Of a DNA stretch of 64,000 nucleotides, positions 11,876 through 63,826 are shown one piece after another. Source of the stretch: an uncultured Actinomycetes bacterium (lineage in GTDB: Bacteria > Actinomycetota > Thermoleophilia > UBA2241); the NCBI GenBank assembly GCA_963764225.1, contig CAVXRL010000008.1, positions 255,304-319,303 on the forward strand, read 5' to 3'. The position numbers were made by a program, and so were the translations under genes. The notes beneath the pieces were generated by a model, which had not been told where the DNA came from, made no database searches, and worked only from the letters and a program-made list of their open reading frames with translations. The first letter of the stretch is position 1. Each line of letters opens with the position of its first letter.

Positions 11876-13516
<1,641 letters not shown>

Positions 13517-38491: not shown

Positions 38492-38568
<77 letters not shown>

Positions 38569-41726: not shown

Positions 41727-41818
41727 TCAGCGGGGTATGGTACGTTCACCGGACGTCTGTTTTGCAGGCATAACAGCCATGCAGGCTCCGGCGTCAGTCC
41801 CCATCAAGAAGGGTCACC

Positions 41819-44014: not shown

Positions 44015-44044
44015 TCGCTCTCCCCGGCGCCTGCTGACGCCCAC

Positions 44045-44614: not shown

Positions 44615-44625
44615 CGGCGCGCGCC

Positions 44626-45465
44626 ATGCCGGCCGCGCCGACCTTCGCGCTCGAGCTGCAGTTCCCGGCGGTCATGGGGATCGTCAACGTCACGCCCGAC
44701 TCGTTCTCGGACGGCGGGCAGTTCTTCGCCGCCGACGCCGCCCTGGAGCAGGCCCTCACGCTGGTGCGTGAGGGCGCCGCGGTCATCGACATCGGCGGCG
44801 AGTCCACGCGGCCGGGCTCCGAGCTGGTCACCCTGGACGAGGAGCTGCGCCGCGTGCTGCCGGTGGTCGAGGCGCTCGCCGGCAGCGTCGGGGTCCCCAT
44901 CTCCGTCGACACGATGAAGGCCGAGGTCGCCCGGCGCGCGCTCGCGTCCGGCGCGACCATGCTGAACGACGTGAGCGCGTTCCGCTACGACGAGGAGATG
45001 GTGGACGTGGTGGCCGAGTCCGGCGCGCCGGTCTGCCTCATGCACATGCAGGGCATGCCCAAGACCATGCAGGAGGACCCCCGGTACGACGACGTGGTGG
45101 ACGAGGTCCTCGCGTTCCTCGAGGCGCGCCTGGCGTTCGCGCTGGCCCGCGGCGTGCGCGAGGAGCAGGTCATGATCGACCCCGGCATCGGGTTCGGCAA
45201 GACCGTGGCGCACAACCTGGCGCTGCTCGACGGTCTGCACCGGTTCACCGCGCTCGGCCGTCCCGTCCTGCTCGGCGCCTCCCGCAAGCGGTTCCTCGGG
45301 GCGATCCTGGGCGCGGAGCCGTCCGGCCGCGCCACCGGGACGGTGGCGACCACCGTCATCGGCTACCTCGCCGGGGCGCACATCTTCCGCGTCCACGACG
45401 TCAAACCCAACTTTGAGGCGCTGCGCGTAGCCCTCGCGGTGCGCGAGGGCGTCGTCGCCCCCTGA
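44626..45465 (+). CDS. folP: dihydropteroate synthase
   Basis: GIVNVTPDSFSDGG and DIGGESTRPG motifs. Confidence 0.9.
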   Translation: MPAAPTFALELQFPAVMGIVNVTPDSFSDGGQFFAADAALEQALTLVREGAAVIDIGGESTRPGSELVTLDEELRRVLPVVEALAGSVGVPISVDTMKAEVARRALASGATMLNDVSAFRYDEEMVDVVAESGAPVCLMHMQGMPKTMQEDPRYDDVVDEVLAFLEARLAFALARGVREEQVMIDPGIGFGKTVAHNLALLDGLHRFTALGRPVLLGASRKRFLGAILGAEPSGRATGTVATTVIGYLAGAHIFRVHDVKPNFEALRVALAVREGVVAP

Positions 45466-45484
45466 TCGGCAAGGAGACCGCACC

Positions 45485-45851
45485 ATGACGCGAAGCCTGT
45501 CCATCGTCCTCAACGGCATCGAGCTGCGCGGGCGCTGCGGCGTCACCGCCCAGGAGCGGGCCATCGGCCAGACGCTCTCCATCGACGTGCGCCTCGATCC
45601 GCAGCCGCGCGGCGCCGGCCAGAGCGACGAGCTCGAGGACACCGTCAACTACAGCCAGATCGTCAACTACGTGCGCGGCGTGGTGGAGGGCGGCGAGTTC
45701 AAGTTGCTCGAGCGGCTCGCCACCGTGCTCTGCGACGGCCTCTGGGACGAGTTCGACCCAGTGACTCGTCGAGGTGGCCGTCAGCAAGATCGCGCCGCCC
45801 GTGGCGCTGCCCGTGCACGCGGCGCGCGTCGAGGTGGTACGCACCTCTTGA
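45485..45851 (+). pseudogene. folB: dihydroneopterin aldolase, with a +1 frameshift near 45765-45775
   Basis: N-terminal part (GIELRGRCGVTAQERAIGQTLSIDV) in the frame of ORF 45485. The sensible C-terminus (...EVAVSKIAPPVALPVHAARVEVVRTS*) is in another frame and ends with a TGA that overlaps the folK TTG. Confidence 0.6.
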
Positions 45852-46357
45852 CCGGGGCCTCGGGCAAGCGGGCGTTCGTCTCGCTCGGCTCCAACCGCGG
45901 CGACCGGGCCGGGTACCTGGCCGCCGCGCGCGAAGCGCTCTCGGCGCTGCCCGGCACCGTGGTCGTCGCCGCGTCCCGGCTGTACGAGACGGCGCCGCAG
46001 GACCTCGAGGGCCAGGACGCGTTCCTCAACCAGGTGCTCTGCCTGGAGACCGGGCTCCAGCCGCTGGACCTGCTGCACGAGTGCCAGCGCATCGAGCGCG
46101 AGCACGGGCGCACACGGGAGCTCAGATTCGGCCCGCGCACGCTCGATATCGATATACTCCTCTTCCAAGACGCCGAGTCCGACGACCCCGAGCTCACGCT
46201 CCCTCACCCGCGCATGGTCAAGCGGGCGTTCGTGCTCGTGCCGCTCGCCGAGGTGTGGGACCACGCCCGAGGCATGACGGACCTCGACGTCGACGCTCTG
46301 GGCCGGGAGACCTCCCGTGTCCAGCAGGTGAGGCTGTACGACGCCACGGAAGGGTGA
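45848..46357 (+). CDS. folK: 2-amino-4-hydroxy-6-hydroxymethyldihydropteridine diphosphokinase
   Basis: AFVSLGSNRGDR...LYETAP...GPRTLDIDILLF motifs. TTG start overlapping the folB stop (TTGA). Confidence 0.8.
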   Translation: MTGASGKRAFVSLGSNRGDRAGYLAAAREALSALPGTVVVAASRLYETAPQDLEGQDAFLNQVLCLETGLQPLDLLHECQRIEREHGRTRELRFGPRTLDIDILLFQDAESDDPELTLPHPRMVKRAFVLVPLAEVWDHARGMTDLDVDALGRETSRVQQVRLYDATEG

Positions 46358-46395
46358 GCGGTGACCGATGAGCAGACGGCGTTGAGGCGGGTCTC

Positions 46396-48051
46396 GTGAC
46401 TCGCCCTTACGTCGCCATCCGTTCCGGCGAACCACTGCACCGGCGCAGCTTCGACGTGCTCGTGCTGGGCGGCGGCATCGCCGGCCTCACGGCCGCCATC
46501 GGCGCCGCCCGCCGCTGGCGCGTCGGCCTGCTGACCAAGTCCACCTTCGAGGAGACCACCACGTTCCTCGCGCAGGGCGGCATCGCCGCCGCCATCGGCG
46601 AGGGCGACTCGCCGGAACTGCACTTCGCCGACACGCTGCAGGCCGGCGCCGGGCTGTGCGACGAAGAGGCGGTCCGGGTGCTGGTCAGCGAGGGTCCGGA
46701 CCGCGTGCGCGAGCTCATGGAGATCTGCCCGCGGTTCGACAAGGTCGACGGGCAGATCGTGCTCGGGCGCGAGGGCGCGCACTCGCTGCCGCGCATCGTG
46801 CACGCCGGCGGCGACGCCACCGGCAGCGAGGTCTCCAGCGCGCTCGCCGAGGCCGCCCGCCTCGGCAGTCGCGTGCAGCTCTACGAGGACGAGTTCGTCA
46901 TCGACCTGCTCACGGTGGACGGCCGCTGCGTGGGCGCGCTCACCCTCAACCTGGCCGACGGCGGGCTCACGCTCAACGTGGCCATGGTCACCGTGCTGGC
47001 CACCGGCGGCGCCGGGCAGGTCTACGGGCGCACCACCAACCCGCCGGTCGCCACGGGGGACGGCGTGGCCATGGCCTACCGGGCCGGCGCCGCCATCCGC
47101 GACCTCGAGTTCGTGCAGTTCCACCCCACCGGTCTGGCTCTGCCGGGGCAGGAGACCGTGCAGCTCATCACCGAGGCCCTGCGCGGCGAGGGCGCGTACC
47201 TGCGCAACGCCGCCGGCGAGCGTTTCATGTCCCAGTACGACACGCGCGCCGAGCTGGCTTCGCGCGACATCGTGGTGCGCGGCATGGTCGCCGAGATGCG
47301 CAAGGAGGACGCCGACCACGTCTACCTCGACGCCACGCACCTCGAGAGCGCGTGGCTGTACGAGCGGTTCCCGAGCGTGACGGCCGGCCTCCGCGAGCAC
47401 GGCCTCGACCTGGCCACGCAGCTCATCCCGGTGGCTCCCGTGTGCCACTACTTCATCGGCGGCGTCGTCACCGACGTGTGGGGGCGGACCACGGTCCCCG
47501 GCCTGTACGCGAGCGGGGAGGTGGCGAGCACGGGAGTGCACGGCGCCAACCGGCTGGCGAGCAACTCGCTGCTCGAGGGACTCGTGTTCAGCGACCGTGT
47601 GGTGCGCGACCTCGACCGCTACATCGGGCGCCTGGGCGAAGACGTACGGCGCCTGAGCTTCGACATCCCGGAGGCGACACCGGGCGGCGGCAGGAGCGAC
47701 GCAGCCGCCGCCCGCCGCCGGCTCACCGCCGTCATGCAGGAGCAGGTCGGGGTGCTCCGCCGCGCTGCCGACCTGAAGGCCGCGCTGGACGAGCTCAGCG
47801 GCCTGGCCACCTACCTGCGGTTCGGTCACATGGGCGAATCCGAGTACGAGGTGCTCAACATGCTCACGCTGGGCACGCAGATCGCCAAGTGCGCGCTGCT
47901 CCGTGAGGAGTCTCGCGGCGTACACCTCCGGGACGACTTCCCCGAGCTGGACGACGCGAAGTGGCGCAAGCACATCACGCTGCGCCTCCCGAAGCACGAG
48001 CGCTCCGAGGGCGTGGGCAAGGTGACCCCGAGCGGAGGAGGCGGACGATGA
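46396..48051 (+). CDS. nadB: L-aspartate oxidase
   Basis: VLVLGGGIAGLTAA FAD-binding motif. Confidence 0.9.
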   Translation: MTRPYVAIRSGEPLHRRSFDVLVLGGGIAGLTAAIGAARRWRVGLLTKSTFEETTTFLAQGGIAAAIGEGDSPELHFADTLQAGAGLCDEEAVRVLVSEGPDRVRELMEICPRFDKVDGQIVLGREGAHSLPRIVHAGGDATGSEVSSALAEAARLGSRVQLYEDEFVIDLLTVDGRCVGALTLNLADGGLTLNVAMVTVLATGGAGQVYGRTTNPPVATGDGVAMAYRAGAAIRDLEFVQFHPTGLALPGQETVQLITEALRGEGAYLRNAAGERFMSQYDTRAELASRDIVVRGMVAEMRKEDADHVYLDATHLESAWLYERFPSVTAGLREHGLDLATQLIPVAPVCHYFIGGVVTDVWGRTTVPGLYASGEVASTGVHGANRLASNSLLEGLVFSDRVVRDLDRYIGRLGEDVRRLSFDIPEATPGGGRSDAAAARRRLTAVMQEQVGVLRRAADLKAALDELSGLATYLRFGHMGESEYEVLNMLTLGTQIAKCALLREESRGVHLRDDFPELDDAKWRKHITLRLPKHERSEGVGKVTPSGGGGR

Positions 48052-48887
48052 GCGCGCGCAGCTATCGGCTCGCCGCCCGGACCGCCGTGCGCCGCGCCCT
48101 GCGTGAGGACCTCGCCGGCTACGGCGACCTCACCGGCTCGGCGTTCGAGGGCGACGGGGCCGCGCGCGTGGTCGCGCGCGAGGCCGGCGTGCTGTCTGGC
48201 ATCGCGACCCTCGAGGAGACCGCGAGGCAGGTGGACCCGGCGCTCGCCGTGGAGATCCTCATCCACGACGGCGAGCGCTTCGAGGCCGGCGACGCCATCG
48301 CCGAGCTGCGCGGTCCCCTGGCGGCGATCCTCGCCTCCGAGCGCACCGCGCTCAACTTCCTGTGCCGCCTGAGCGGCGTGGCGACGCTGACGGCGACCTA
48401 CGCGGCCGAGACGGCCGGCACCCGGGCGCGCGTCGCCGCGACGCGCAAGACCACGCCCGGGCTGCGCGCCCTCGAGAAGCAGGCCGTGGTGGACGGCGGC
48501 GGCACGCCGCACCGGTTCGGCCTGTTCGACGGCGCCATGATCAAGGACAACCACGTGGCGGCGGCCGGCAGCGTCTCCGCGGCCGTGGAGCGCGTGCGCG
48601 CGGGCGCTGCGCACCTGCACGCGCTGGAGGTCGAGGTCGACACGCTCGAGCAGCTGGACGAGGCGCTCGCGGCCGGCGCGACCATCGTGCTGCTCGACAA
48701 CATGGACACCCCCACCGTGCGCGCGGCCGTGGAGCGTGTGGCCGGCCGCGCCCTCGTGGAGGTCAGCGGCGGCGTGCGGCTCGAGCGCGTGCGCGAGCTC
48801 GCCGAGGCCGGCGTTGACGTCATCTCCGCCGGCGCCCTCACCACGCGCGCGCCCTGGATCGACCTCGCACTCGACCTGGAGGTGTGA
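48048..48887 (+). CDS. nadC: nicotinate-nucleotide diphosphorylase (carboxylating)
   Basis: QPRTase family (...TRKTTPGLR...). ATGA overlap with nadB. GGAGGAGG RBS. Confidence 0.85.
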   Translation: MSARSYRLAARTAVRRALREDLAGYGDLTGSAFEGDGAARVVAREAGVLSGIATLEETARQVDPALAVEILIHDGERFEAGDAIAELRGPLAAILASERTALNFLCRLSGVATLTATYAAETAGTRARVAATRKTTPGLRALEKQAVVDGGGTPHRFGLFDGAMIKDNHVAAAGSVSAAVERVRAGAAHLHALEVEVDTLEQLDEALAAGATIVLLDNMDTPTVRAAVERVAGRALVEVSGGVRLERVRELAEAGVDVISAGALTTRAPWIDLALDLEV

Positions 48888-48888
48888 G

Positions 48889-49662
<774 letters not shown>

Positions 49663-49754
49663 GGCCGCGGGAGTGACGGGCGTGCCCGCGCCCGGAGCGC
49701 CGCGCGACGGGGACGTGCCGCCGCTCGCGAACGACCCGCCGGCGAACGACCCGC

Positions 49755-50708
49755 TTGCGGCGACCCCTGACGCTCGGCGGGCTGCGGCTCGACCGGCGCC
49801 TCTTCATGGCGCCGATGGCCGGTCTCACCACATCCTCGTTCCGGCGCAGCGTGCGCCGCTGGGGCGCCGGGCTGGTGTTCACCGAGATGATCTCGGCCTA
49901 CGGAGTGCACTACGACAACCGGCGCACGCTCGACTACTTCGCCCACGGTGAGGACGAGCACCCCCTGGGCTTCCAGCTGTTCGGCGCCGACGCGGACGTG
50001 CTGGCCGACGCCGCCGGGCGCGCGGTGGAGGCCGGCGCCGACGTGGTCGACCTCAACATGGCGTGCCCGGTGCGCAAGGTCGTCAAGACGGGCGCCGGGG
50101 CGGCGCTGCTGGCGGAGCCGGACCTCGCCGCCGCCGTCGTGGCGGCGGTGGTGCGCGCGGCCGGCGAAGCTTCGCCGCGCCGCCCCGTGCCCGTGACCGT
50201 CAAGATCCGGGCCGGCCTGCGCGAGGGCGACGGCCTGGGAGCGGCGCTCGCGCCGCGGCTGGTCGAGGCGGGGGCCGCGGCGGTGTGCATCCACCCGCGC
50301 ACGGCCGCTCAGCTGTACCGCGGGCTCGCCGACCACCGGGTGACGTTCGCGCTCGCCGCGGCGCTGCCCGTCCCGGTGGTCGCCTCCGGCGACGTGGACG
50401 GGAGGGACGCGGCGCTGCGGCTGCTGGAGGGCGGCGCCGCGGCGGTGATGCTCGCCCGCGGCGCCGTGGGCGCGCCGTGGCTGTTCGCCCAGGTGCTGGG
50501 CGCCGCCGAGCCGGAGGCCGCCGAGAAGCTCGAGGAGGTGCGCCGCTTCGCGGCGGAGGCCTTCGACGAGCTCGGCGGCCGCGCCGTGGGTCACCTGCGC
50601 CAGTTCTGGGGCAAGTTCCGCCGCCACGGCGCCTTCGACAAGGAGCTCTCGGTGGGCCTCATGCGGGCGCGGGACGAGGCTGAGATACGCTCGCTGCTCG
50701 GCCTCTGA
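49755..50708 (+). CDS. dus: tRNA-dihydrouridine synthase
   Basis: LFMAPMAGLT and DLNMACP motifs. TTG start. Confidence 0.75.
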   Translation: MRRPLTLGGLRLDRRLFMAPMAGLTTSSFRRSVRRWGAGLVFTEMISAYGVHYDNRRTLDYFAHGEDEHPLGFQLFGADADVLADAAGRAVEAGADVVDLNMACPVRKVVKTGAGAALLAEPDLAAAVVAAVVRAAGEASPRRPVPVTVKIRAGLREGDGLGAALAPRLVEAGAAAVCIHPRTAAQLYRGLADHRVTFALAAALPVPVVASGDVDGRDAALRLLEGGAAAVMLARGAVGAPWLFAQVLGAAEPEAAEKLEEVRRFAAEAFDELGGRAVGHLRQFWGKFRRHGAFDKELSVGLMRARDEAEIRSLLGL

Positions 50709-50738
50709 CGCCCTCGCGTTGACGGCGCTTTGCTCGGT

Positions 50739-50767
50739 TTGCGCACGGGCCGGGCATGCCCTATACT
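50739..50767 (+). promoter_or_regulatory. candidate promoter for greA (TTGCGC-17 nt-TATACT)
   Basis: Hexamers with a 17-nt spacer, ~65 nt upstream of the greA GTG. Confidence 0.35.
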
Positions 50768-50831
50768 TGCTCGCCACTTCGGCGCGCGGCCTCGAACGGG
50801 GCCGCGTTGCCGCGTTGAAGAGGAGGCTTCA

Positions 50832-51311
50832 GTGGTCGATCGCGAGATCATCCTCACGCCTGAGGGCTTCCAGAGCCTCAAGGAAGAGGTCGAGTATCTC
50901 TCATCCGTCAAGCGCGATGAGGTCGCCGAGCGCATCCGTGCCGCTCGCGACTTCGGCGACATCTCGGAGAACTCGGAGTACGACGACGCCAAGAACGAGC
51001 AGGCCATGCTCGAGGCGCGCATCTACTCCCTCGAAGAGCGTCTGCGCAGCGCCATCGTCATCGACTCCGACAGCATCACCACCGACGTCGTCGGCGTCGG
51101 CACCAAGGTGACGCTTCAGGACATGCAGCGGGGTGACATCGTGCAGTACGCCATCGTCGGCTCGTCCGAGGCCGACCCGGGCGCGCACAAGCTGTCCAAC
51201 GAGTCGCCCGTGGGCCGCGCGATCATCGGTCACAAGCCCGGCGACAAGGTCACCGTGGCCGTCCCCCAGGGGTCCAAGAAGTTCAAGGTCCTGGCCATCG
51301 AGAAGGCCTGA
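50832..51311 (+). CDS. greA: transcription elongation factor GreA
   Basis: ILTPEGFQSLKEEVEYL...ENSEYDDAK sequence. GAGGAGG RBS. Confidence 0.9.
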   Translation: MVDREIILTPEGFQSLKEEVEYLSSVKRDEVAERIRAARDFGDISENSEYDDAKNEQAMLEARIYSLEERLRSAIVIDSDSITTDVVGVGTKVTLQDMQRGDIVQYAIVGSSEADPGAHKLSNESPVGRAIIGHKPGDKVTVAVPQGSKKFKVLAIEKA

Positions 51312-51319
51312 CCCACCCC

Positions 51320-52807
<1,488 letters not shown>

Positions 52808-52821
52808 TCACCGCGCCGGGG

Positions 52822-52868
52822 CCATCCGCCCCATCCGCCGCCGCCCACCAAGCCGCCGCCCACCAAGC
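52822..52868. repeat. two adjacent short tandem duplications (CCATCCGCC x2, then GCCGCCCACCAAGC x2)
   Basis: Read directly from the sequence, just downstream of the lysS stop. Confidence 0.5.
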
Positions 52869-52971: not shown

Positions 52972-53427
52972 GTGGTGGGAGAAGTACGCGCGCTGCGCGG
53001 GCCGGATCGGCGACGCGCGAAGCGCTGGTACGTTCACCACGAGCGGCGCACCGGCTTCGACCGGCGCCGCCGGCGACAGTCCACGGTGGGGGCGGTCTAC
53101 GACGCTACGCTCCTCCATCTCCGCGACCGCCCGGCGAGCCTCGCCGGCCTGCTGTTCCTCGGCAACCTGCTGAGCCTGACCGATCTGCTGCTGACTTGGG
53201 CTTGCCTGAGTCTGGGGGCGGCGGAGGTCAATCCCGTGATGCGCTACCTCCTGGCCGCGGAGCCGGCTACCGCCGCCGCGGCCAAGCTCGCTCTGATCGC
53301 CGCCGCGACGCTCGCGATCTGGGTGTTCCGCCGCTACCGCGTGGTGCTGGCGATCGCGCTGTACCTCACGACGTTCTACTGCCTGGTGGTGCTCTATGAG
53401 ACCGTCGGTCTGGCGCGACTCCTGTAG
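52972..53427 (+). CDS. small membrane protein with polybasic N-terminus (3-4 TM helices), unknown function
   Basis: MVGEVRALRGPDRRRAKRWYVHHERRTGFDRRRRRQ followed by hydrophobic helices that contain an E-V-N-P motif. GC3-biased codons. Confidence 0.5.
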   Translation: MVGEVRALRGPDRRRAKRWYVHHERRTGFDRRRRRQSTVGAVYDATLLHLRDRPASLAGLLFLGNLLSLTDLLLTWACLSLGAAEVNPVMRYLLAAEPATAAAAKLALIAAATLAIWVFRRYRVVLAIALYLTTFYCLVVLYETVGLARLL

Positions 53428-53699
53428 CCGAGACGGGCTGGTCACGCCTGCAGACGGGTGCCCGTTGCCCGTCCTGACCACGCGATATCCTCGTCGGCGT
53501 GTTCCAGTTGCTAAAGGGGAGTACGATGAAGCTGGCGACCGTGTTGAGTGAAGGGGTACAGGTCGCCGGACGCGGGCAACGTTCGTGACGGAGAGTCGCC
53601 GGCCAGGACCAAGGGTCAAGGCGCGGCGACGATAGTCGTTCCGTCATCCCCTTCACACGTGTGTGGGTTCCGGGCTGAGAGACCCGAGGAGGGAAGAGG

Positions 53700-55472
53700 A
53701 TGAGACGAGCACGGGGGGATCGCGGGTTCACGCTCGTTGAACTGCTCATCACCATAGTGCTGGCGGGCATTGTCTTCGCTGCGTTGGTGCCAGTGTTTGT
53801 CTCGGCGTCGCAGCAGGGGAGCACGGATCGCGCGCGCATCATCGCCATCAACACGGCGCAGAGTGCAGTCGAACGCTTGCGTGACCTTCCTTATGACGAT
53901 CTGTACGACACCCATTGGTCCGACCCCACGACAAGGGAGACCGTGCTCGGGCAGACTCTCGAGTGGAAGGGGTCGACCAGCGACCTGACCGTCGATGTTG
54001 AGCCGTATCCTCTGGGCAGCCAGAAGGGGGCTGAAAGATACCTTGTTGCCTCCGTCAAGGCCTCTTGGACCGGCCCTGGGGACCAGTCACACGAAGTTGT
54101 GATGAAGACGGCTATCTACAGGGAGGGTCTGGGAACGGAGACTCTCGTCCTGTACGTGACTCCTCTGACGGGTGGTGTAATCAGGCAGTCGACGGCGATG
54201 GTAACCGGCCGTCTCGGTGGTGTCGATGCCGCCAAGACCGAGAGCATCATCTTCACCGTGTACGCCAACAATGGGACCGTCATCGACAACTGGACCGTGA
54301 CTTCGGCAGAAGCGACCGTTCGCGCTGACGGCTATACGTACTACGAAGACGAGTGGGACGCCACCGCGTTGGAGGATGGCCGGTATTCCTTCGTCGCCAA
54401 GACTGTCCCGATGCACATGGACCCACTACCCCCGTCGGAATGGGCTCGCAAGGAGTACATCCTCGACCGTGAACCACCAAGCGACCAGGTCGTCGATACC
54501 TGTCACTACGGCTTCCAGATGTCGAGTTCCGAGACGGAACCCGAGCCCGAGCCCACGCCCTTCGTCTATCTCGCCTGGCATTCTGAAACGAGTCAGAGCG
54601 ACATTGATCACTTCGAAATTTCTCGTACGGGAGTAGCGGCTGGCGGCACCGCGCTGGCTCCGCTCCTCATCAACGTGCCGAACTGGAGCACCGAATACGT
54701 GGATCGCGATGTGATCGAGGGCGCAACGTACACCTACGCGATCCGTGGATGGGACACGCAGGACCAGCACGGGGAGTGGTCTCCAGAGCCTGGCACGGCC
54801 ATCGTTACAGCTTCGGACGCCGCCATCACTCCCGCCCCGCCCGAATCTCCCATCACCTACACAGTGAATGGACGCAGTGTCACCGTTATTTGGCAGCCCT
54901 CCACCACACCCGAACTGATCGATCACTACCGTATCTATCGTCAAGGCGCGGACGGGACGAGGCTGTTGGTGACCACGGTGGAAGCGGACACCGTCTCGCC
55001 GGACGATGGACTGTTGCGGTACCCTGACCCATTCGTCGACTACGGTGCCACCTACACCTACTTCATCACGTCGGTGGTCCTACTTGGCGCTCCGCCGCAA
55101 TGGGAAAGCCTGTCGCTCAGCGGGGCACCCGTCCGCGTGCCTGAACCACCCAAGGTCGGCATGAGGGTCTCCGTCTCTGTCAAGGCGGGCGTGACTGCCC
55201 CCAAACTCGCCCGCCTCGTCATCCACGATCTTGTCAATGGCGACCTGATTCCGGCAAACCCATGGGACTATGCGTCGATCAACCCCAGCAGCAGCAACGA
55301 GAACCAGAACACCTGGGTGACCGGCGACATCCTTTACCCGGGCAGTTACCAGGTGATTGCAGTCTTCTACGATCAGAACAGGAATGTCATAGCCGAGTAC
55401 CTCTCCGACTCCATTGAGCTCACGCAGTCTGACACACCCGTCACCGTGCCCTATGACGGCCCCAATCGATGA
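53700..55472 (+). CDS. large prepilin-type (type IV pilin-like) protein with FN3-like repeats (minor pilin / pilus-tip adhesin candidate)
   Basis: N-terminal class-III signal MRRARGDRG|FTLVELLITIVLAGIVFAALVPV, then a ~540-aa Thr/Pro-rich domain with Y-x-Y-x-I FN3-like strands. GGAGGGAAGAGG RBS. Region GC is ~55-58%. Confidence 0.65.
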   Translation: MRRARGDRGFTLVELLITIVLAGIVFAALVPVFVSASQQGSTDRARIIAINTAQSAVERLRDLPYDDLYDTHWSDPTTRETVLGQTLEWKGSTSDLTVDVEPYPLGSQKGAERYLVASVKASWTGPGDQSHEVVMKTAIYREGLGTETLVLYVTPLTGGVIRQSTAMVTGRLGGVDAAKTESIIFTVYANNGTVIDNWTVTSAEATVRADGYTYYEDEWDATALEDGRYSFVAKTVPMHMDPLPPSEWARKEYILDREPPSDQVVDTCHYGFQMSSSETEPEPEPTPFVYLAWHSETSQSDIDHFEISRTGVAAGGTALAPLLINVPNWSTEYVDRDVIEGATYTYAIRGWDTQDQHGEWSPEPGTAIVTASDAAITPAPPESPITYTVNGRSVTVIWQPSTTPELIDHYRIYRQGADGTRLLVTTVEADTVSPDDGLLRYPDPFVDYGATYTYFITSVVLLGAPPQWESLSLSGAPVRVPEPPKVGMRVSVSVKAGVTAPKLARLVIHDLVNGDLIPANPWDYASINPSSSNENQNTWVTGDILYPGSYQVIAVFYDQNRNVIAEYLSDSIELTQSDTPVTVPYDGPNR

Positions 55473-55482
55473 GAAGGCAGCC

Positions 55483-56661
55483 ATGAAGCGCGCCGTTTCA
55501 GCTGAGGACATGCGGGTCGGTGGTTCGAGTTCCGGCAGCAGTCTGATCATGCTCATCGGCGTCGTGGCGGCGCTCGCCCTGCTTGCCGCGACGCTGGTCG
55601 CGGTGCTGGCGAATGCGCAGCATGCCACCTCCATGAACCGGGCTAAGACGAGCTCCTTCGACATTGCCGAGGCGGCCGTCGATGTGACGATGGAGAGGTT
55701 GTCGCAGCAGTGGCCGGACGACACCGCCCAGTGGACTCCGGCCACCTTTGCTACCATCGCCCCACAGTTCGCCACGACCTTCGGTGTGACTCCCAACGCG
55801 ACCAGCGGTGATGCCGTCTGGGTGCTCGTACGGGACGATGCGGGCGCGGACATAACCTCGGCTCCCGCCTACGATGAGAACGGCAACGGGTTCCTGTGGG
55901 TCGACGCTCAGGCGCGCGTGAACGACGCCTCATCCCGCATCCGGACAATGATCCAAGCCAAGTTCTACGAGATGAACCTACCGAAGGGCGTGGCCGTTTG
56001 TGCGGACGGCGACCTGCTCAGCAATGCTCCAGGTGGAACGACGTCGTCCGGCAAGAACAAGATCGGTGCCGGCGATGTCTCTGTCGGCGGCCAGCAACCT
56101 GTGTCCATCGCGATCTGGGGGTCCATCCAGAATCCTGAGGTGGCTTGGCCGTACGTCGATCAGAACCCGCCGTACAAGCCCCACGCTCAGGATCTCATCC
56201 CCCCCGACCTTATCGCCGACCTCAGGGCGATCGCCGAGAGCACGGGCAAGCTGTTCACCGGAGGCGCAATGCCCTCACGCGAAGACCTGGAGGGGCTTTG
56301 TGTGGTAGAGGCTGGCCCCGGCATCACGGTGCAACTGGGCCAGAACGGCAGGACGGAAGCCTTCAACAGCCCGACTAAGCCGGGAATTCTGCTCGTCCTC
56401 GGGGGAGCGGGTCTTAAGCTCGCCGGAAACACCGAGTACTACGGGGTGGTCTACACGGAGGGCGACATCGGCGTGGCGCAGGGAAACCCGATCATCTACG
56501 GAATGGTGGTTACGAAGGGCACCTTCGACATGGGTGGAGTGGCGCAGGTTATCTACCGTGAGGACTGTTTGGCGAACCTCAATCGTCAGTTTCAGACATC
56601 CACCCGTATCGTGCCGAACTACTGGCGTGAACTTACGCCGGTCGACTACTCGTTGCCATGA
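55483..56661 (+). CDS. PilX-like pilus assembly/minor pilin protein
   Basis: N-terminal hydrophobic segment (LIMLIGVVAALALLAATLVAV) followed by ...RAKTSSFDIAEAAVDVTMERL, which resembles the PilX_N pattern. ATG at 55513 is an alternative start. Confidence 0.5.
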   Translation: MKRAVSAEDMRVGGSSSGSSLIMLIGVVAALALLAATLVAVLANAQHATSMNRAKTSSFDIAEAAVDVTMERLSQQWPDDTAQWTPATFATIAPQFATTFGVTPNATSGDAVWVLVRDDAGADITSAPAYDENGNGFLWVDAQARVNDASSRIRTMIQAKFYEMNLPKGVAVCADGDLLSNAPGGTTSSGKNKIGAGDVSVGGQQPVSIAIWGSIQNPEVAWPYVDQNPPYKPHAQDLIPPDLIADLRAIAESTGKLFTGGAMPSREDLEGLCVVEAGPGITVQLGQNGRTEAFNSPTKPGILLVLGGAGLKLAGNTEYYGVVYTEGDIGVAQGNPIIYGMVVTKGTFDMGGVAQVIYREDCLANLNRQFQTSTRIVPNYWRELTPVDYSLP

Positions 56662-57287
56662 GCTTGCGCTTCCGTCATCGCGCGTCGGGGCTGACGCTCG
56701 TGGAACTGCTGGTGGTAATGACGATCGGCGTCATTGTTTCGGGGGCGATCCTGCTCACGTGGTCGTCGCTCACCCGCTCGTTCTCGTTTACTACGAAGAG
56801 TAGCGACTCGCAGGATTTCGCGCGCGACGCAGTGGCGCGCATGGGCAGAGAGATCCGCGACATGGAACCACTGGGAGCTGCATCCGCCATACTGCTGGCC
56901 GACAGTGACGAACTCGTCTTCACCACTACGTTCAACGAGGCCGGTAACGACACACCTCTCGTCGATCCGGTCCTAACAAGATACTGGTACTCGTGGGACG
57001 CGGACCGGCATGTAGGCGTCCTTCATCGCGAGCGGGGAGGGGTCTCCCGCGTACTTGTGGACAACGTTCTCAACACGAGGACGGGATCCGACGCTGACAT
57101 CTTCAAGTACACCTATGTTGACGCGGGGAGAAACCTGGTTACTGATGGTCAATCCCCCTCAGAGGTCGAGTACGACAGCATCTCCATGATTCGAATTGAC
57201 CTTTCAGTTGACTTGAATCCAGAGTCAGCCCCGCAGCCCATGACAGTCTCAACTCGGGTGCATCTTCGCAACCAGGGCCGGTACTAA
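56658..57287 (+). CDS. prepilin-type N-terminal cleavage/methylation protein (GspJ/PilW-like minor pseudopilin)
   Basis: MSLRFRHRASG|LTLVELLVVMTIGVIVSGAILL prepilin motif. ATGA overlap with the upstream gene. Confidence 0.6.
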   Translation: MSLRFRHRASGLTLVELLVVMTIGVIVSGAILLTWSSLTRSFSFTTKSSDSQDFARDAVARMGREIRDMEPLGAASAILLADSDELVFTTTFNEAGNDTPLVDPVLTRYWYSWDADRHVGVLHRERGGVSRVLVDNVLNTRTGSDADIFKYTYVDAGRNLVTDGQSPSEVEYDSISMIRIDLSVDLNPESAPQPMTVSTRVHLRNQGRY

Positions 57288-57319
57288 GGTCGTCAATTCC
57301 TCGCTGCTGATTCCGGGCG

Positions 57320-57350
57320 GCCTCAACTCCGGCCCGCCTCAACTCCGGCC
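57320..57350. repeat. tandem duplication GCCTCAACTCCGGCC x2 (15-bp unit, 1-nt spacer)
   Basis: Read directly from the sequence, in the convergent gap between the GspJ-like gene and the MMPL gene. Confidence 0.5.
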
Positions 57351-57365
57351 GCATCACTGCCTCTC

Positions 57366-59510
57366 CTAGGACTCGCCGCCCAGCGGCTCCGTGCCCGCGG
57401 CGAGGGGTTGTGCCTCGCGCAGCGGTTCGTGGGCCGCGCTGCTATTCGTCCACCTCGGCCCCGGCCACCCGGCCTTCGAGCCGACCCACAGCGTGAGCCC
57501 CGGCACCAGCGCCGTGCGCACGAGGAACGTGTCGATGAGCACGCCGAGCGCCACGCCGATGCTGATCTCGGCGAGGTCCTTCACCGGCTGAGACAGCAGG
57601 ATGAGGAAGGTGCCGGCCAGGATGATGCCGGCGCTGGTGAGCACGCCGCCGGTGGCCGAGAGCGCCCTCACCGTGCCGTCGTGCAGGCCGCGCAGCATGG
57701 CCTCGCTGCGGATGCGCGTGGTGATGAAGATGTTGTAGTCGCTGCCCAGCGCCACCAGGAAGATGAACATGTACAGCGGGATGCGGTAGCTGATGTGCTC
57801 CCAGCCGAGGATCTTCTCCGTGATGACGATGGTCGCGCCGAGGGCGGCGAGGTACGAGAGCACGTTGGTCAGCAGCAGGTAGAGCGGCGCGACGACGGCG
57901 CGCAGCAGCAGCATGAGGATCGCGCCGACCACCACCAGGGCGACGACGGCCACGACGATCGTGTCGCGGTTGCTCTGCGCCCAGGTGTCGGCCTGGGTGG
58001 CGGTGGGGCCGCCCACGAGGGCTGTGCCCCCGGCCTGGGCGGCCGCCTTGCGCGCGACCCCCCGGAGCTCGCGCACCTGGTTGAGCGCCTCGCTCGAGTA
58101 CGGGTCGCCCTCGAAGATCACCTGGAAGCTGAGCAGCGTGCCGTCCAGCGCGCTGCCGGTCGGGAACGCCGCGGCCACGCCGGGCGACTCGTTCAGCATC
58201 CCGGTGATCATGCCCACGACGGCCTCCGGCGGGGCCTCCGGCGCCTTGACCAGCACCGTGGTCGGCGCCAGCGCCCCCTTGGGGAAGTGCTTCTCGAGCA
58301 AGGCGTAACCCTCGCTTGAGGGCATGCTGGTGAGGAAGTCCTCGGTGAAGCTGAAGCGCGGGCTGTAGAAGAGGCAGCCGAGGGCGAGCACCACGAGGAT
58401 CGCGATGACGCCCAGCGCCGCGCGCCTGGGCCCGGCGGCGACCCACGCGGCGACGCGCTCCCAGGTGCGGTGGGTCGTGGCCTCGCCCTCCTTGGGCACG
58501 CGCGGCCAGAACGCCTTGCGGCCGAGCAGCGCGAGCAGCGCCGGCATGAGCGTGAGCCCGGCGATGAGGGTGACGAACACGCCGAGCCCGAGCACCGGCG
58601 CGAACGACCGGTAGTCGCCGTACTGCGCGAACAGCAGCGTGAGCACGGCGAGCGTCACGGTGAGACCGCTCGCCGCGATGGCCTCCCACGTCTCGCCGAG
58701 CGCCGTCGCCAGCGCCTCGCGCGCGTCGGCGGTGCGCCGCAGGTCCTCGCGGTAGCGCGAGATGAGCAGCAGGCCGTAGTCGGTGCCGGCGCCGAACAGC
58801 AGGATGACCATGAGCGACGTCGCCTGCCCGGAGAGCGTGAAGTCGAAGGTCTTGGCCAGCAGCGCCAGGATGCCGCCGGCGACGAAGTACCCGAACCCGA
58901 CGGCCACGAGCGGCACGAACGGCAGCACCGGCGAGCGGTAGATGAGCAGCAGCAGGACCAGCACGAGGATGACGGTGCCGACGAGCAGCTTCACGTCGGC
59001 GTTCAGGAAGATCTTGTAGACGTCGGTGATGAGGCCGCCGGGACCGGTGACCCGCACCTCCATGCCCTCGACCGTCTGGCCGAAGTGGTCGCGGATCGCC
59101 TCCACCGAGTCGCGGAACGCCTCGTCGCCGGGATTGCCGTTGAGGCTGGCGAAGATCAGCGCCCCCTTGCCGTCCTCGCTGAACTGCACGCTCGCGCTGT
59201 TGACGGGCTGCTCGCCGCCCAGCAGCCAGTCCTCGCCGCTCGTGACGGCGGCCTTCTGGGCGGCCGTCAGCGGCGCCTCGGAGCTGTAGACGACGATGAC
59301 CGGAGTGCCCTTGGCGTTGGGGAACGACGCCTGGTACAGAGCGTCGGCGCGCTTGCTCTCGACCTTGTCGGAGAGACCTTTGGACGCGTCGTTGGTGGTC
59401 ACGCTCTGCAGCTTGGGGCCCATGGACAGCAGGCCGGCCACGACGATCCAGGCCGCGATGACGATCCACGGATGTTTGCCTCTCACGGACCAGGTGATAA
59501 TGCGTCGCAT
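57366..59510 (-). CDS. MMPL-family (RND superfamily) membrane transporter
   Basis: 714 aa with two 6-TM bundles, each followed by a soluble domain, and MMPL-type signatures (…SRYREDL…, …GSDYNIF…). Confidence 0.85.
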   Translation of the reverse strand: MRRIITWSVRGKHPWIVIAAWIVVAGLLSMGPKLQSVTTNDASKGLSDKVESKRADALYQASFPNAKGTPVIVVYSSEAPLTAAQKAAVTSGEDWLLGGEQPVNSASVQFSEDGKGALIFASLNGNPGDEAFRDSVEAIRDHFGQTVEGMEVRVTGPGGLITDVYKIFLNADVKLLVGTVILVLVLLLLIYRSPVLPFVPLVAVGFGYFVAGGILALLAKTFDFTLSGQATSLMVILLFGAGTDYGLLLISRYREDLRRTADAREALATALGETWEAIAASGLTVTLAVLTLLFAQYGDYRSFAPVLGLGVFVTLIAGLTLMPALLALLGRKAFWPRVPKEGEATTHRTWERVAAWVAAGPRRAALGVIAILVVLALGCLFYSPRFSFTEDFLTSMPSSEGYALLEKHFPKGALAPTTVLVKAPEAPPEAVVGMITGMLNESPGVAAAFPTGSALDGTLLSFQVIFEGDPYSSEALNQVRELRGVARKAAAQAGGTALVGGPTATQADTWAQSNRDTIVVAVVALVVVGAILMLLLRAVVAPLYLLLTNVLSYLAALGATIVITEKILGWEHISYRIPLYMFIFLVALGSDYNIFITTRIRSEAMLRGLHDGTVRALSATGGVLTSAGIILAGTFLILLSQPVKDLAEISIGVALGVLIDTFLVRTALVPGLTLWVGSKAGWPGPRWTNSSAAHEPLREAQPLAAGTEPLGGES

Positions 59511-59777: not shown

Positions 59778-62351
59778 ATGTTCGAACGGTTCACCGAACG
59801 CGCCAGACAAGTCGTGGTCCTCGCGCAAGAAGAGGCCCGATCGCTCAAGCACAACTACATCGGTACTGAACATCTGCTGCTCGGCCTCCTTCGCGAGGAG
59901 GAGGGTGTCGCCGCGCGCGTGCTCGACGGCCTCGAAGTGTCCGTCGAGGAGGTCCGCGCCGCCGTCGTGCGCATCGTCGGCTCCGGCGAGGAGTCGCCCC
60001 AGGGGCAGATCCCGTTCACCCCGCGCGCCAAGAAGGTCCTGGAGCTCGCGCTGCGTGAGGCGCTCAGCCTCGGCCACAACTACATCGGCACGGAGCACAT
60101 CCTGCTCGGTCTGGTGCGCGAGGACGAGGGCGTGGCCGCGCGCATCCTGCTCGACCTGGACGCCGAGCCGGAGAAGATCCGCAATGAGGTCATGCGCGCG
60201 CTCAGCGGGCCCGGGCGGCGCAGTACGCAGGCCGGCCAGTCCGAGGGCGGCAAGCGCGCGGCCAAGGTTCTCGACCAGTTCGGACGCAACCTCACCAAGC
60301 TCGCCGAAGAGGGCAAGCTCGACCCGTGCATCGGCCGCCAGACCGAGATCGAGCGGGTCATGCAGATCCTCAGCCGGCGTACCAAGAACAACCCGGTGCT
60401 CATCGGCGAGCCCGGCGTCGGCAAGACGGCCATCGTCGAGGGCTTCGCCCAGCGCATCGCCAATCACGAGGTCCCCGAGCTGCTCAAGGGCAAGCAGGTG
60501 TGGACGCTCGACCTCGCCGCGCTCGTCGCCGGCAGCAAGTACCGCGGCGAGTTCGAGGAGCGCCTCAAGAAGGTCATGAAGGAGATCCGCGAGACGGGCG
60601 ACATCATCCTGTTCATCGACGAGCTCCACAATCTCGTCGGCGCGGGAGCCGCCGAGGGCGCCATCGACGCGGCCAGCATCCTCAAGCCGGCGCTGGCCCG
60701 CGGCGAGTTGCAGACCGTCGGCGCCACCACGCTGGACGAGTACCGCAAGTACCTCGAGCGTGACGCCGCCCTCGAGCGGCGCTTCATGCAGATCAAGGTG
60801 GCCGAGCCGTCGTCCGAGGAGACCGTCGAGATCCTCAAGGGGCTGCGCGACCGCTACGAGGCCCACCACCGCATCCGCATCACCGACGAGGCGCTCGGCT
60901 CGGCCGCCGAGCTGGCCGACCGCTACATCAGCGACCGGTTCCTGCCCGACAAGGCCATCGACCTCATCGACGAGGCCGCCAGCCGCATGCGCATCCGCAC
61001 CATGACCGCCCCGCCCAGCTACCGCGAGCTCGAGGAGGAGATCGCCTCGGTGCGCAAGGAGAAGGAGGCGGCGATCGAGGCGCAGGAGTTCGAGAAGGCG
61101 GCCAACCTGCGCGACAAGGAGCGCAAGCTCAGCCACAAGAAGCTCGAGCTCGAGGACGCCTGGAAGACCAGCGACGAGGGCATGCGCGCCAGCATCGGCG
61201 AGGACGAGATCGCCGAGATCGTCAGCATGTGGACCGGCATCCCGGTGGTCAAGATCACCGAGGCCGAGACCAAGAAGCTTCTGCGCATGGAGGACGAGCT
61301 GCATGCGAGGCTCGTCGGCCAGGATCCGGCGGTCCGCGCCGTCAGCAAGGCCATACGGCGCAGCCGCGCCGGGCTCAAGGACCCACGGCGGCCCACGGGC
61401 TCGTTCATCTTCCTCGGCCCCTCCGGCGTCGGCAAGACGGAGCTCGCCCGCACGCTCGCCAATTTCCTCTTCGGCGACGAGGACCACCTCGTGCAGATCG
61501 ACATGAGCGAGTACATGGAGAAGCACTCGGTGTCCCGCCTCGTCGGCTCGCCGCCCGGCTACGTGGGGCACGAAGAGGGCGGCCAGCTCACCGAGATCGT
61601 CCGCCGCAAGCCGTACAGCGTCATCCTGTTCGACGAGATCGAGAAGGCCCACCCGGACGTGTTCAACGTCCTCCTGCAGATCCTGGAGGACGGACGGCTC
61701 ACCGACTCGCAGGGTCGCACCGTGGACTTCCGCAACGCGATCCTCATCATGACGAGCAACATCGGCGCCTCGATGATCACCAAGGACACGCCGCTCGGCT
61801 TCACCCAGACGGCCAACAAGGGCATGACGTACGACGACATGAAGGGCCGCATCACCGGCGAGCTCAAGCGCGTCTTCAAGCCCGAGTTCCTCAACCGCGT
61901 CGACGAGGTCATCGTCTTCCACAAGTTGGAACGCAAGGAGATCGGCGCGATCGTCGACCTGATGATCGACCGGCTGCGTCAGCAGCTCAAGGTGAGCGGC
62001 GTCGACATCGCGCTCACCGACGCAGGCCGCGACGTGCTGGTCGAGAAGGGCTACGACCCCATGCTCGGCGCCCGCCCGCTGCGGCGCGCCATCCAGCGGT
62101 ACATCGAGGACAAGCTCAGCGACGCCATGCTCGAGCGGTCGTTCCCCGAGGGGACCGTGGTGCTGGTCGACGGGCAGAACGAGGACACCGTGCTCACGGT
62201 CAACGGAGAGGTCGTCGGCGGCAGCGTCGAGCTGCCCATGGTCGGCCTCGACGAGCCCGTCTCGCAGGGCGTCGGCGGAGGGTCCTCGAGCCCGCCGCCG
62301 GGCGGCGAGAGCGAAGGCCCGGACGCCGGCGGCGCGTCCGCGGGCGTGTGA
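59778..62351 (+). CDS. clpC: ATP-dependent Clp protease ATP-binding subunit ClpC
   Basis: [22 protein letters not shown]-terminal repeats, two AAA+ modules ([21 protein letters not shown]), and a UVR-like coiled coil. Confidence 0.95.
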
Positions 62352-62398
62352 AGGGTCTGTGACGACGCCCGGCGCGCGCGGCCGCGAGGCCCGCTGAC

Positions 62399-63826
62399 GT
62401 GGCGAAGACGCAGACCGTGTTCACGTGCGGCGAGTGCGGCCGCCGGGAGGCCAAGTGGCTCGGCCACTGCCCGGACTGCGGCGCCTGGGACTCGTTCGTC
62501 GAAGAACAGGTGACCCCGGCGGGCGGCGCCGGCTATGCCGGCAGGGCCCGCCGCAAGAAGACCGGTGACGGGGCCGGCGGAGGTACAGCCGCCGGCCCCG
62601 TCCGTCTGTCCGAGGTGCGGTCGTCGGCCGCCGAGCGGTTCTCGAGCGGCATCGACGAACTCGACCGCGTGCTCGGCGGCGGCATCGTCCCGGGCTCGCT
62701 GGTGCTCGTGGGCGGCGAGCCCGGCATCGGCAAGTCCACGCTGCTCCTGCAGGTGCTCGACAACGTCGCCGCCGGGCGCCCCGCCCTGCTCGTCTGCGGC
62801 GAGGAGTCGGCCGCGCAGGTCAAGATGCGCGCCGAGCGCATCTGCAAGGGCGCGGCCAACATCGACGTGCTCGCCGAGACCGAGCTCGAGACGGTGCTCG
62901 AGGCCGTCGCCGCCGCGCGCCCCGCGCTGGTCGTCGTCGACTCGGTCCAGACGCTCTACAGCGACTCGTTCACGTCGGCGCCCGGCAGCGTGAGCCAGGT
63001 GAGGGAAGCGGCGGGCCGCTTCCTCCGCCTGGCCAAGGACACCGGCGCCGCCGTCTTCCTCGTCGGCCACGTCACCAAGGAGGGCGCGATCGCCGGCCCC
63101 CGGGTGCTCGAGCACATGGTCGACACGGTGCTGCAGTTCGAGGGCGACCGCTACCGGTTCTACCGCACGCTCCGCGCCGCCAAGAACCGGTTCGGCTCCA
63201 CCAACGAGCTCGGCATCTTCGAGATGACGGGGTCGGGCCTCAAGACGGTGCCCGACCCCTCCGCCCTGTTCCTCAGCGAGGCGGCGCCGGCCGCCGGCTC
63301 CGCCGTGCACGTCGCCGTCGAGGGTACGCGCTGCTTTCTCGTCGAGGTGCAGGCGCTGGTCAACAAGACCGAGCTGGCGATGCCCCGCCGCGTCGCCGTC
63401 GGCTTCGACCGTAACCGTTTGGCGATGCTGGTCGCGGTGCTCGGCAGGCATGCCGGACTCAAGTTGTCGTCTTCCGACATATTTGTTACAATTGCAGGTG
63501 GAATTCGCATCGACGAGCCTGCGGCGGACCTCGCAGTCGCACTCGCTGTCGCCTCAGCGCAGTACGACGTGCCGCTTCCGTCCGCGGCGGCGGTGTTCGG
63601 GGAGATCAGCCTGACGGGCGCACTTCGATCCTGCAGCCAGAGCGAGCGGCGTGTCGCCGAAGCCCAGCGCACTGGCTTCGACCGGGTCGTCGTACCTTCG
63701 TCCGATGCGCGCCGTGCCGGCAGAGGTGTCACCGGTGCGGCAGACCTGCGTGGAGCGTTCGCCGCCACCCTTGGCGGCGCGCCCCGTTCGGCCTCCGGGG
63801 CCACGAACGACGAGTGGGGGGTTTGA
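62399..63826 (+). CDS. radA: DNA repair protein RadA/Sms
   Basis: CGECGRREAKWLGHCPDCGAW zinc finger, GEPGIGKST Walker A, KNRFGSTNELG, and a Lon-like C-terminal domain. Confidence 0.9.
   Translation: MAKTQTVFTCGECGRREAKWLGHCPDCGAWDSFVEEQVTPAGGAGYAGRARRKKTGDGAGGGTAAGPVRLSEVRSSAAERFSSGIDELDRVLGGGIVPGSLVLVGGEPGIGKSTLLLQVLDNVAAGRPALLVCGEESAAQVKMRAERICKGAANIDVLAETELETVLEAVAAARPALVVVDSVQTLYSDSFTSAPGSVSQVREAAGRFLRLAKDTGAAVFLVGHVTKEGAIAGPRVLEHMVDTVLQFEGDRYRFYRTLRAAKNRFGSTNELGIFEMTGSGLKTVPDPSALFLSEAAPAAGSAVHVAVEGTRCFLVEVQALVNKTELAMPRRVAVGFDRNRLAMLVAVLGRHAGLKLSSSDIFVTIAGGIRIDEPAADLAVALAVASAQYDVPLPSAAAVFGEISLTGALRSCSQSERRVAEAQRTGFDRVVVPSSDARRAGRGVTGAADLRGAFAATLGGAPRSASGATNDEWGV

Follow-up and report, generated by a model that had tools for sequence, protein, structure and literature searches.

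What does a trio of pilin-type genes do in a genomic neighborhood that encodes no machine for assembling a pilus? The question is raised by a 64-kb stretch of DNA from a soil actinobacterium of the class Thermoleophilia (hereafter, the window), in which three closely packed + strand genes, here termed A, B and C, span 53700-57287 and fill a stretch of low guanine-plus-cytosine (GC) content. A preliminary description of the window had pointed out three consecutive genes of pilin type at this place and offered two explanations: horizontal acquisition, or a priming complex for a pilus encoded elsewhere. The second proved to be the best reading of the locus. We consider it reasonably probable that the triad is the minor-pilin tip, or priming, complex of a type IV filament, equipped with an adhesive stalk and serving a machine whose genes lie elsewhere in the genome.

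Three consecutive pilin-type genes

Genes A and C carry class III signal peptides, as had been described for the first and third genes of the set. That of A reads MRRARGDRG/FTLVELL (the slash marks the cleavage site; cleavage context RG/FTLVELLITIVLAGIVFAAL) and that of C reads MSLRFRHRASG/LTLVELL (SG/LTLVELLVVMTIGVIVSG). Both proteins pass Pfam N_methyl (PF07963; 28.5 bits for A and 27.9 bits for C, against a gathering score of 21.2) and TIGR02532 (25.8 and 17.2 bits against 16.3). An alignment of 21 homologs of A shows no variation at Gly(-1), at Glu(+5) or along much of the alpha1 helix, and 14 homologs of C likewise all have both residues. Among all open reading frames (ORFs) of the window, the class III motif G-x-[TS]-x-x-E occurs in A and C only.

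A word index returned 23 homologs of A, all of ~570-620 amino acids (aa). The AlphaFold2 (AF2) model of A (predicted local distance difference test, pLDDT, 83) shows an alpha1 helix at residues 12-62 and a three-stranded head at 94-139, the pilin module spanning residues 1 to ~145, and then four beta-sandwich domains of fibronectin type III (FN3)/immunoglobulin (Ig)-like type at ~150-255, 263-368, 381-470 and 488-585. Foldseek matched this model to tandem FN3 arrays, with gp130 and fibronectin as named matches (E ~1e-9 to 4e-11). The sequence match of A itself to fn3 is weak (E 0.0034); fn3 was matched in 14 of 21 relatives and FlgD_ig in eight of the 21, in line with the FN3-containing pilin of the preliminary description. 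Thr accounts for 10% of residues and Pro for 7.5%. Because the pilin module precedes four FN3-like domains in the predicted fold, and because relatives match fn3 and FlgD_ig, we classify A, on its model, as a modular pilin, that is, a pilin module followed by independently folded domains. The term reportedly denotes a pilin module with a grafted functional module.

Gene C, whose start overlaps the stop of B (ATGA), is a canonical prepilin. The assignment of this third gene to the GspJ/PilW type, plausible from its size, was not borne out: neither T2SSJ nor PilW families matched at E ≤ 1, N_methyl being the only family found, and profile likeness to Escherichia coli GspG/H/I/J is confined to the N-terminal helix. 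The hhalign alignment of C with E. coli GspJ covers residues 7-35 only, with similar scores for GspI and GspG, and beyond alpha1N no match was found to PDB chains (profile search), Pfam or NCBIfam families. A placement of A and C in the GspH/I/J classes was rejected because hhalign against single E. coli sequences aligned the N-terminal helix only.

For gene B three starts come into question: TTG 55414 (from the ORF list), ATG 55453 (from the gene caller) and ATG 55483, where the homologs start (MKRAVS...). The last has GAAGG 5 nucleotides (nt) upstream and lies 10 nt past the TGA of A. It is most likely the true start, since the homologs begin there. The cleavage context of B is …SSSG/SSLIMLIG (SG/SSLIMLIGVVAALALLAA), in which the Gly is invariant in the family alignment, and Glu5 is missing from all 27-29 homologs. 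B has no N_methyl or TIGR02532 match, as expected for the PilX/GspK class. Pfam PilX_N (PF14341) and T2SSK did not match B at E ≤ 1; PilX_N was found weakly in 8 of 29 relatives (best E 4e-4), and the Joint Genome Institute (JGI) labels several distant relatives “Tfp pilus assembly protein PilX.” The family is sizeable though unnamed, since a profile HMMER scan of 1.84 billion cluster representatives returned 1292 relatives at E ≤ 1e-3, of which 401 were at ≤ 1e-10 and 99 at ≤ 1e-30. This amounts to ~100 clusters of close relatives at 50% identity and ~1,300 clusters in total at E ≤ 1e-3.

The AF2 model of B, with residues numbered from ATG 55453, has a long alpha1 helix (29-85), a three-stranded sheet, strands at 121-171 and 381-394, and an ice-binding-protein (IBP)-type beta-solenoid (~175-370) that is inserted ahead of the last strand (381-394). 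In structure comparison, ice-binding proteins scored 12.7-14.7, GspK 9.6, ComZ 9.3, XcpX 8.6, Streptococcus sanguinis PilA 7.0, tapirin 6.7 and Neisseria PilX 6.1, and Foldseek independently put ComZ first (E 2e-5). The pilin core resembles those of GspK, XcpX and ComZ, and the bulky insertion before the last beta strand is present. On this model, we classify B as a GspK/PilX-class minor pilin without Glu5, with a solenoid inserted in the pilin fold.

Proposed tip complex and known counterparts

In the arrangement that we favor, B would be the apical subunit at the tip, because it lacks Glu5 and because its bulky beta-solenoid cannot be buried in the fiber. A and C would dock under B via their N-terminal helices as the Glu5-bearing pilins, in analogy to the ternary caps GspK-GspI-GspJ and PilX-PilV-PilW, where Glu5 is absent from the apical subunit and present in its partners. 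Extending outward from the tip, the stalk of A, with its about four FN3/Ig-like domains, would act as an adhesin or spacer. Once a prepilin peptidase has cleaved the subunits, the complex would prime an ATPase/platform machine to polymerize the major pilin; it would then remain at the far end of the fiber and set what the pilus binds. The genes for peptidase, major pilin and machine would all lie in other parts of the genome. That the three proteins form a complex, that they sit at the tip, that they act in adhesion and that a machine exists are separate steps of this proposal, each of which we infer.

B is like ComZ of Thermus thermophilus (PDB 6qvi) in that an ice-binding-type beta-solenoid is inserted in the pilin fold. 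For ComZ, this solenoid-in-pilin architecture was argued to be located at the tip since the solenoid could not be buried in the fiber (PMC6561018). A triangular IBP-like beta-solenoid between the penultimate and last strands also characterizes all cyanobacterial PilX proteins and was proposed to act as the tip plug of a priming complex; the cyanobacterial minor-pilin sets (PilX_Com/PilX_EPS) have a four-member core of FimT, PilW, PilV and PilX, described as universal, and occur as several alternatives per genome that share one machine and are encoded away from it (bioRxiv 10.64898/2026.02.12.705559). The cassettes studied here resemble these sets in the position of B’s solenoid before the last strand, in the presence of several sets per genome and in their distance from machinery, whereas they comprise three genes rather than four families and belong to another phylum with another envelope, the likeness being one of architecture. 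Actinomycetota are generally taken as monoderm.

Other systems differ more clearly in their parts. Unlike the tip of the type II secretion system (T2SS), GspK-GspI-GspJ (PDB 3ci0; XcpVWX, 5vtm), the triad has no family hidden Markov model (HMM) match to GspI, GspJ or GspK and no secretin or T2SS context, and A and C correspond to the I and J classes only by analogy. The modular minor pilins of S. sanguinis (PilB and PilC, with PilA) bear vWA and lectin modules, in contrast to the FN3/Ig array and beta-solenoid found here. These streptococcal pilins lie within the pil locus together with machinery, and the insert of GspK is alpha-helical, not a solenoid.

The same tip complex could instead serve DNA uptake, with B as a ComZ-like DNA receptor on a short competence pseudopilus and A and C as its partners; ComZ binds DNA via two lysines. 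We regard this as unlikely. B is just 12% identical to ComZ, nothing in the ComZ/PilA2 pair corresponds to the four-domain FN3 stalk of A, which looks like an adhesin spacer, and neither comEA nor comEC was recognized among the window ORFs when N-terminal sequences were read, no search having been made for them.

Two clades of cassettes in Thermoleophilia

Relatives of the cassette were gathered by looking up contigs and by scanning a genome and a metagenome, and comprise more than 40 loci in Thermoleophilia metagenome-assembled genomes (MAGs). Homologs of A, B and C occur together and tightly packed in all of these loci, in two gene orders and in some places as tandem arrays, and there are exactly three pilin-like ORFs per cassette both in the window (by motif scan) and at every related locus. 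Clade 1, to which the window belongs, has the order A-B-C and occupies at least three distinct neighborhoods (lysS/DUF5658 ... MMPL; DAGK ... Zn-ribbon/UvrD; GAF-HD/YgbA_NO ... Peptidase_C1/MFS). Clade 2 has the order A-C-B and a B that is ~33% identical to that of the window. It is found between UPF0182 on its upstream side and a META/HisKA/response-regulator/glycosyltransferase block on its downstream side, often as two or three tandem cassettes, and within these arrays A may be reduced to ~280 aa or B expanded to 550-820 aa. Both clades are present in one MAG, MFD09779 (MFD09779.bin.2.149; loci L008 and L010). The several cassettes per genome and the tandem arrays fit alternative tip sets that share one machine.

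Some of the cassettes lie on short contigs. A clade-2 cassette on a 3983-nt contig (L012, JBLMXT010000212.1) belongs to a MAG labeled Deltaproteobacteria; misbinning is likely, because the other named sources are all Thermoleophilia or Actinobacteria. A 3797-nt Logan contig (L001, run ERR11718636) is 100% identical to window positions 53678-57474 and carries the cassette only, its ends falling 22 nt before A and ~100 nt inside the MMPL gene. Its cassette-like size is probably an assembly effect. The cassette-length contigs of many homologs were considered as a sign of mobility and judged to be a sampling effect of short metagenome contigs.

Regulatory signatures upstream of gene A

In clade 2, the motif CTCA(T/C)G-N13-15-GCCGATA(C/G) lies 76-93 nt ahead of the codon for Gly(-1) in A. 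It precedes 15 of ~19 distinct clade-2 A genes, with one further site at -148 in locus L022, and GCCGATA occurs 32 times in 352 kb (both strands), 12 of these occurrences being at the motif position before A genes. Judged by its sequence, this element is a sigma-28/WhiG-type promoter (-10 consensus GCCGATAA). No A-B-C (clade-1) cassette, including that of the window, has the clade-2 element. A WhiG promoter on the window cassette was considered and rejected, as the best site, CCAA-N15-GACGATAG, has four mismatches and is not conserved in L008.

Alignment of 11 clade-1 upstream regions revealed the conserved sigma-70-like elements TGGTCA-N17-TA(C/G)nAT, of which the window copy keeps the -10 and has a degraded -35. 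We take this site as a putative cassette promoter (Table 1); a simple promoter scan made no call there. The clade-1 leader is ~165 nt long and contains two conserved blocks, which are kept even where the proteins are only ~30% identical. The 20-mer CTGAAGGGGKTYSGGKYCTC is present only upstream of clade-1 A genes, and nhmmer profiles of the two blocks gave one match per clade-1 cassette and none elsewhere in ~530 kb. The window copy of both blocks is the most diverged.

Block 2 is complementary to both the GAAGGGG of block 1 and the Shine-Dalgarno region GAGGAGGGAAGAGG, and in minimum-free-energy folds of the 11 leaders CCCCTTC pairs with GAAGGGG or with the Shine-Dalgarno region, varying by ortholog. 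Single-sequence folds had z-scores from +1.0 to -3.1. Rfam returned nothing in the leader of the window or of six orthologous loci, and the RNAalifold consensus is weak (-5.1 kcal/mol for the whole leader and -3.9 kcal/mol for block 2), with no covariation. An RNA switch is not supported, given these weak consensus energies and the lack of compensatory changes. The clade-1 leader also contains a near-palindrome, CTGAA-N5-TTCGG, which would suit a protein operator just as well.

Absence of linked machinery

The statement that no pilus machinery lies within the 64 kb was borne out. With E. coli HofB, HofC, GspD, GspE, GspF, GspL, GspM and GspO as phmmer queries against the six-frame translation of the window, no homolog of GspE/HofB, GspF/HofC, GspO or GspD was found at E ≤ 10, and the only matches were those of the N-terminal pilin helix to A and C. 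Across ~530 kb of context including the window, there is likewise no GspE-family ATPase, GspF-family platform or GspO-type peptidase. For a single cassette this absence is unremarkable because it is the rule throughout the family. Minor-pilin operons are commonly unlinked to machinery.

Several observations nevertheless weigh against a tip complex. An ATPase, platform, prepilin peptidase and major pilin were seen neither in the 64-kb window nor in the ~470 kb around the more than 40 cassettes. The four-member core set (FimT/GspH, PilW/GspJ, PilV/GspI and PilX/GspK) is not found at these loci, where there are only three pilin-like genes. The structural likeness of B to GspK spans ~100 residues at 13% identity. 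In the literature searched, no partner machine is reported for Thermoleophilia, and there is nothing on their pili beyond one study (PMC8325347). On the other side, the WhiG-type promoter of paralogous cassettes counts for a tip complex, since the same sigma factor drives the type IV pilus (T4P) genes of Rubrobacter. A partner machine would be expected because type IVa pilus systems occur in Actinobacteria (PMC6668835) and because in Rubrobacter, of the sister class Rubrobacteria, the T4P cluster is controlled by WhiG, and Thermoleophilia possess WhiG/RsiG (PMC8325347).

A stand-alone surface complex would do without the machine. The pilin helices would then be membrane anchors, and the solenoid and FN3 stalk would be displayed on the envelope with no filament. 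Neither filament machinery nor a small major pilin is linked to any of the more than 40 cassettes, and the triad is self-contained and shifts as a unit between contexts, as such a complex might. However, an invariant Glu5 in A and C with none in B is the pattern of stacked tip subunits, and an anchor needs no Glu5. Paralogous cassettes stand behind a motility-type sigma promoter, and the lack of linkage is usual for minor-pilin operons. We hold a stand-alone complex to be distinctly unlikely. A bolder form of the idea, which we rate as improbable, is that triad-bearing Thermoleophilia lack a type IV filament machine altogether and that the triad is a self-sufficient pilin-derived surface adhesin module. 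If true, this module would pass as a unit from genome to genome, with several variants per cell, and would be under two dedicated controls: the WhiG-type promoter in one class and a conserved 5′ leader without an Rfam entry in the other.

Base composition and origin of the cassette

The window has a mean GC content of 70.2%. The three 1-kb segments across 54001-57000 are its lowest (0.604, 0.622 and 0.612), all remaining segments being at ≥ 0.643, and a 400-nt profile places the dip at ~53400-57400 with a minimum of 0.583. Thus, the dip that had been described is real and the profile is not uniform, whereas the range of 55-58% given for it was slightly low. The cassette as a whole is at 0.609, and its two 6-kb flanks are at 0.715 and 0.698. 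GC at third codon positions (GC3) is 0.74 in A, 0.78 in B and 0.70 in C, and 0.90-0.99 in the neighbors lysS, greA, MMPL, clpC, groEL and ftsH. GC at first and second positions differs little between the cassette genes and their neighbors, so the dip is mostly one of codon usage. Part of it is a family trait, since in all genomes examined the cassettes have a GC content 5-6 points lower than that of their flanks.

Low GC could mark foreign DNA newly inserted as a genomic island, with function as incidental cargo. The GC3 contrast with the neighbors fits such an event, as does the site within the conserved core block hpt-ftsH-fol...lysS...clpC-radA. Cassette relatedness, moreover, ignores context. 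Loci L003 (4145-7801) and L006 (10001-13740) share a site with flanks 69-92% identical, and their cassettes are only 31% (A), 35% (B) and 41% (C) identical, while L002, in a different neighborhood, has a cassette 59-75% identical to that of L003. These comparisons point to cassettes that move or are replaced over a longer timescale, with L003/L006 as a case of replacement or very rapid divergence.

A recent arrival in the window is another matter. The preliminary description had named relatives as the place to look for the island, and L008, which comes from another species and is the single available relative with the synteny of the window, has A-B-C at the same lysS-MMPL position, in the same order (dusB-greA-lysS-DUF5658-A-B-C, then MMPL). 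Identity to the window is 80-96% for its flanking proteins (LysS 91%, GreA 96%) and 68% (A), 76% (B) and 77% (C) for its cassette proteins, a divergence only moderately above that of the flanks, with equally low cassette GC3 (0.77 and 0.82). Because L008 carries A-B-C at the same site, the cassette is older than the split between the two species and not a recent strain-specific insertion. No integrase, insertion sequence (IS) element, adjacent tRNA or flanking direct repeats are present at the window cassette (the sole tRNA of the window is at 38492-38565), and plasmid and phage searches returned no relatives. The tandem duplications that had been seen as bracketing the island, at 52822-52868 and 57312-57350, are tiny, mutually unrelated and neither flanking direct repeats nor insertion scars. 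Of the proposed horizontal acquisition, the atypical composition stands, and a recent island is very unlikely. The larger GC drop in the lineage of the window and L008 may reflect an older transfer from a donor with lower GC3, or relaxed codon selection.

L008 also contains an extra gene between C and MMPL (11898-13334), which encodes a 478-aa protein that is FAD-dependent-oxidoreductase-like by sequence and which the window lacks.

Gene neighborhood

The rest of the window, according to ORF reading and Pfam checks on ten ORFs, consists of housekeeping genes (tsaEBD-type, groES/groEL, peptide ABC transport, hpt, ftsH, folE, folP, folB/K, nadB, nadC, coaX and dusB). Close to the cassette the order is greA, lysS, a gene for a DUF5658 membrane protein, the cassette, a convergent MMPL transporter gene, and then clpC and radA. 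A conserved block of core genes (hpt...lysS ... clpC, radA; 41160-52807 and 59778-63826) is interrupted by the cassette. The DUF5658 protein (52972-53427), which has an Arg-rich N-terminus, is encoded directly upstream of the cassette, as it is in L008. It is 56% identical between the two, evolves faster than its neighbors and has a GC3 of 0.88; its gene is not beside cassettes in other contexts. An 80-aa ORF of high GC3 at 16346-16585 has an Arg-rich C-terminal tail (RRVAERRRSARSPVAGERRRQERRRRPPE) similar to the Arg-rich N-terminus of the DUF5658 protein. At the tandem repeat downstream of C, the promoter and terminator scan made no terminator-like call.

Table 1. Positions of the cassette genes, upstream elements and related loci (in the window unless a locus is named).
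Feature	Position	Strand	Basis or remark
Gene A, modular type IV pilin as modeled, 590 aa	53700-55472	+	N_methyl, TIGR02532, AF2, Foldseek
Gene B, GspK/PilX-class minor pilin as modeled, 392 aa	55483-56661	+	start by homolog alignment, AF2
Gene C, type IV pilin-like, 209 aa	56658-57287	+	N_methyl, TIGR02532, 14 homologs
Putative sigma-70-type promoter	53499-53527	+	-10 TACGAT 53522-53527; weak -35 TGTTCC 53500-53505
Leader block 1, consensus CAGAGGGACTGAAGGGGGTTCGGGTCTCTGCTCGCG	53536-53576	+	near predicted 5′ end; nhmmer E 5.8e-5 in window
Leader block 2, GCGTTC...TCCCCTTC	53636-53699 (or -53704)	+	just before Shine-Dalgarno; nhmmer E 2.2e-7 in window
16-nt tandem repeat, 2.4 copies	57312-57350	.	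Tandem Repeats Finder (TRF); in 78-nt C-MMPL spacer
Clade-1 leader, window	53499-53699
Clade-1 leader, L008	8030-8239
Clade-1 leader, L002	9791-10006
Clade-1 leader, L003	3934-4135
Clade-1 leader, L006	9813-10006
Clade-1 leader, L009	7837-8054
Clade-1 leader, L025, L026, L028, L029, L032
Clade-2 motif, L010	7375-7408
Clade-2 motif, L013/L016	7449-7482
Clade-2 motif, L017	7356-7389
Clade-2 motif, L021	11949-11982
Clade-2 motif, L022	11992-12025
Clade-2 motif, other loci
Tandem array, L015	2-6334
Tandem array, L017	761-11134
Tandem array, L021	8246-15730
Tandem array, L052	662-12312
Tandem array, one more locus

Implications for Thermoleophilia

The triad is best filed among the known minor-pilin tip complexes, as a lineage-specific and uncharacterized member that combines a solenoid pilin of ComZ/PilX type with a modular adhesin pilin, and as such it is fairly ordinary; the paired regulatory signatures and the turnover of cassettes are the more original observations. 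The analysis gives a reading for a lineage-specific family to which neither Pfam nor NCBIfam devotes a model. It also extends to Actinomycetota the theme of a PilX protein with an ice-binding-type solenoid as a tip plug, which came from Thermus and cyanobacteria, and this extension suggests that the architecture is either ancient or repeatedly selected. Thermoleophilia, soil actinobacteria that are abundant but have scarcely been cultivated, probably assemble type IV filaments whose adhesive tips are exchangeable, and the two regulatory signatures offer experimental handles on the choice among alternative pilus tips.

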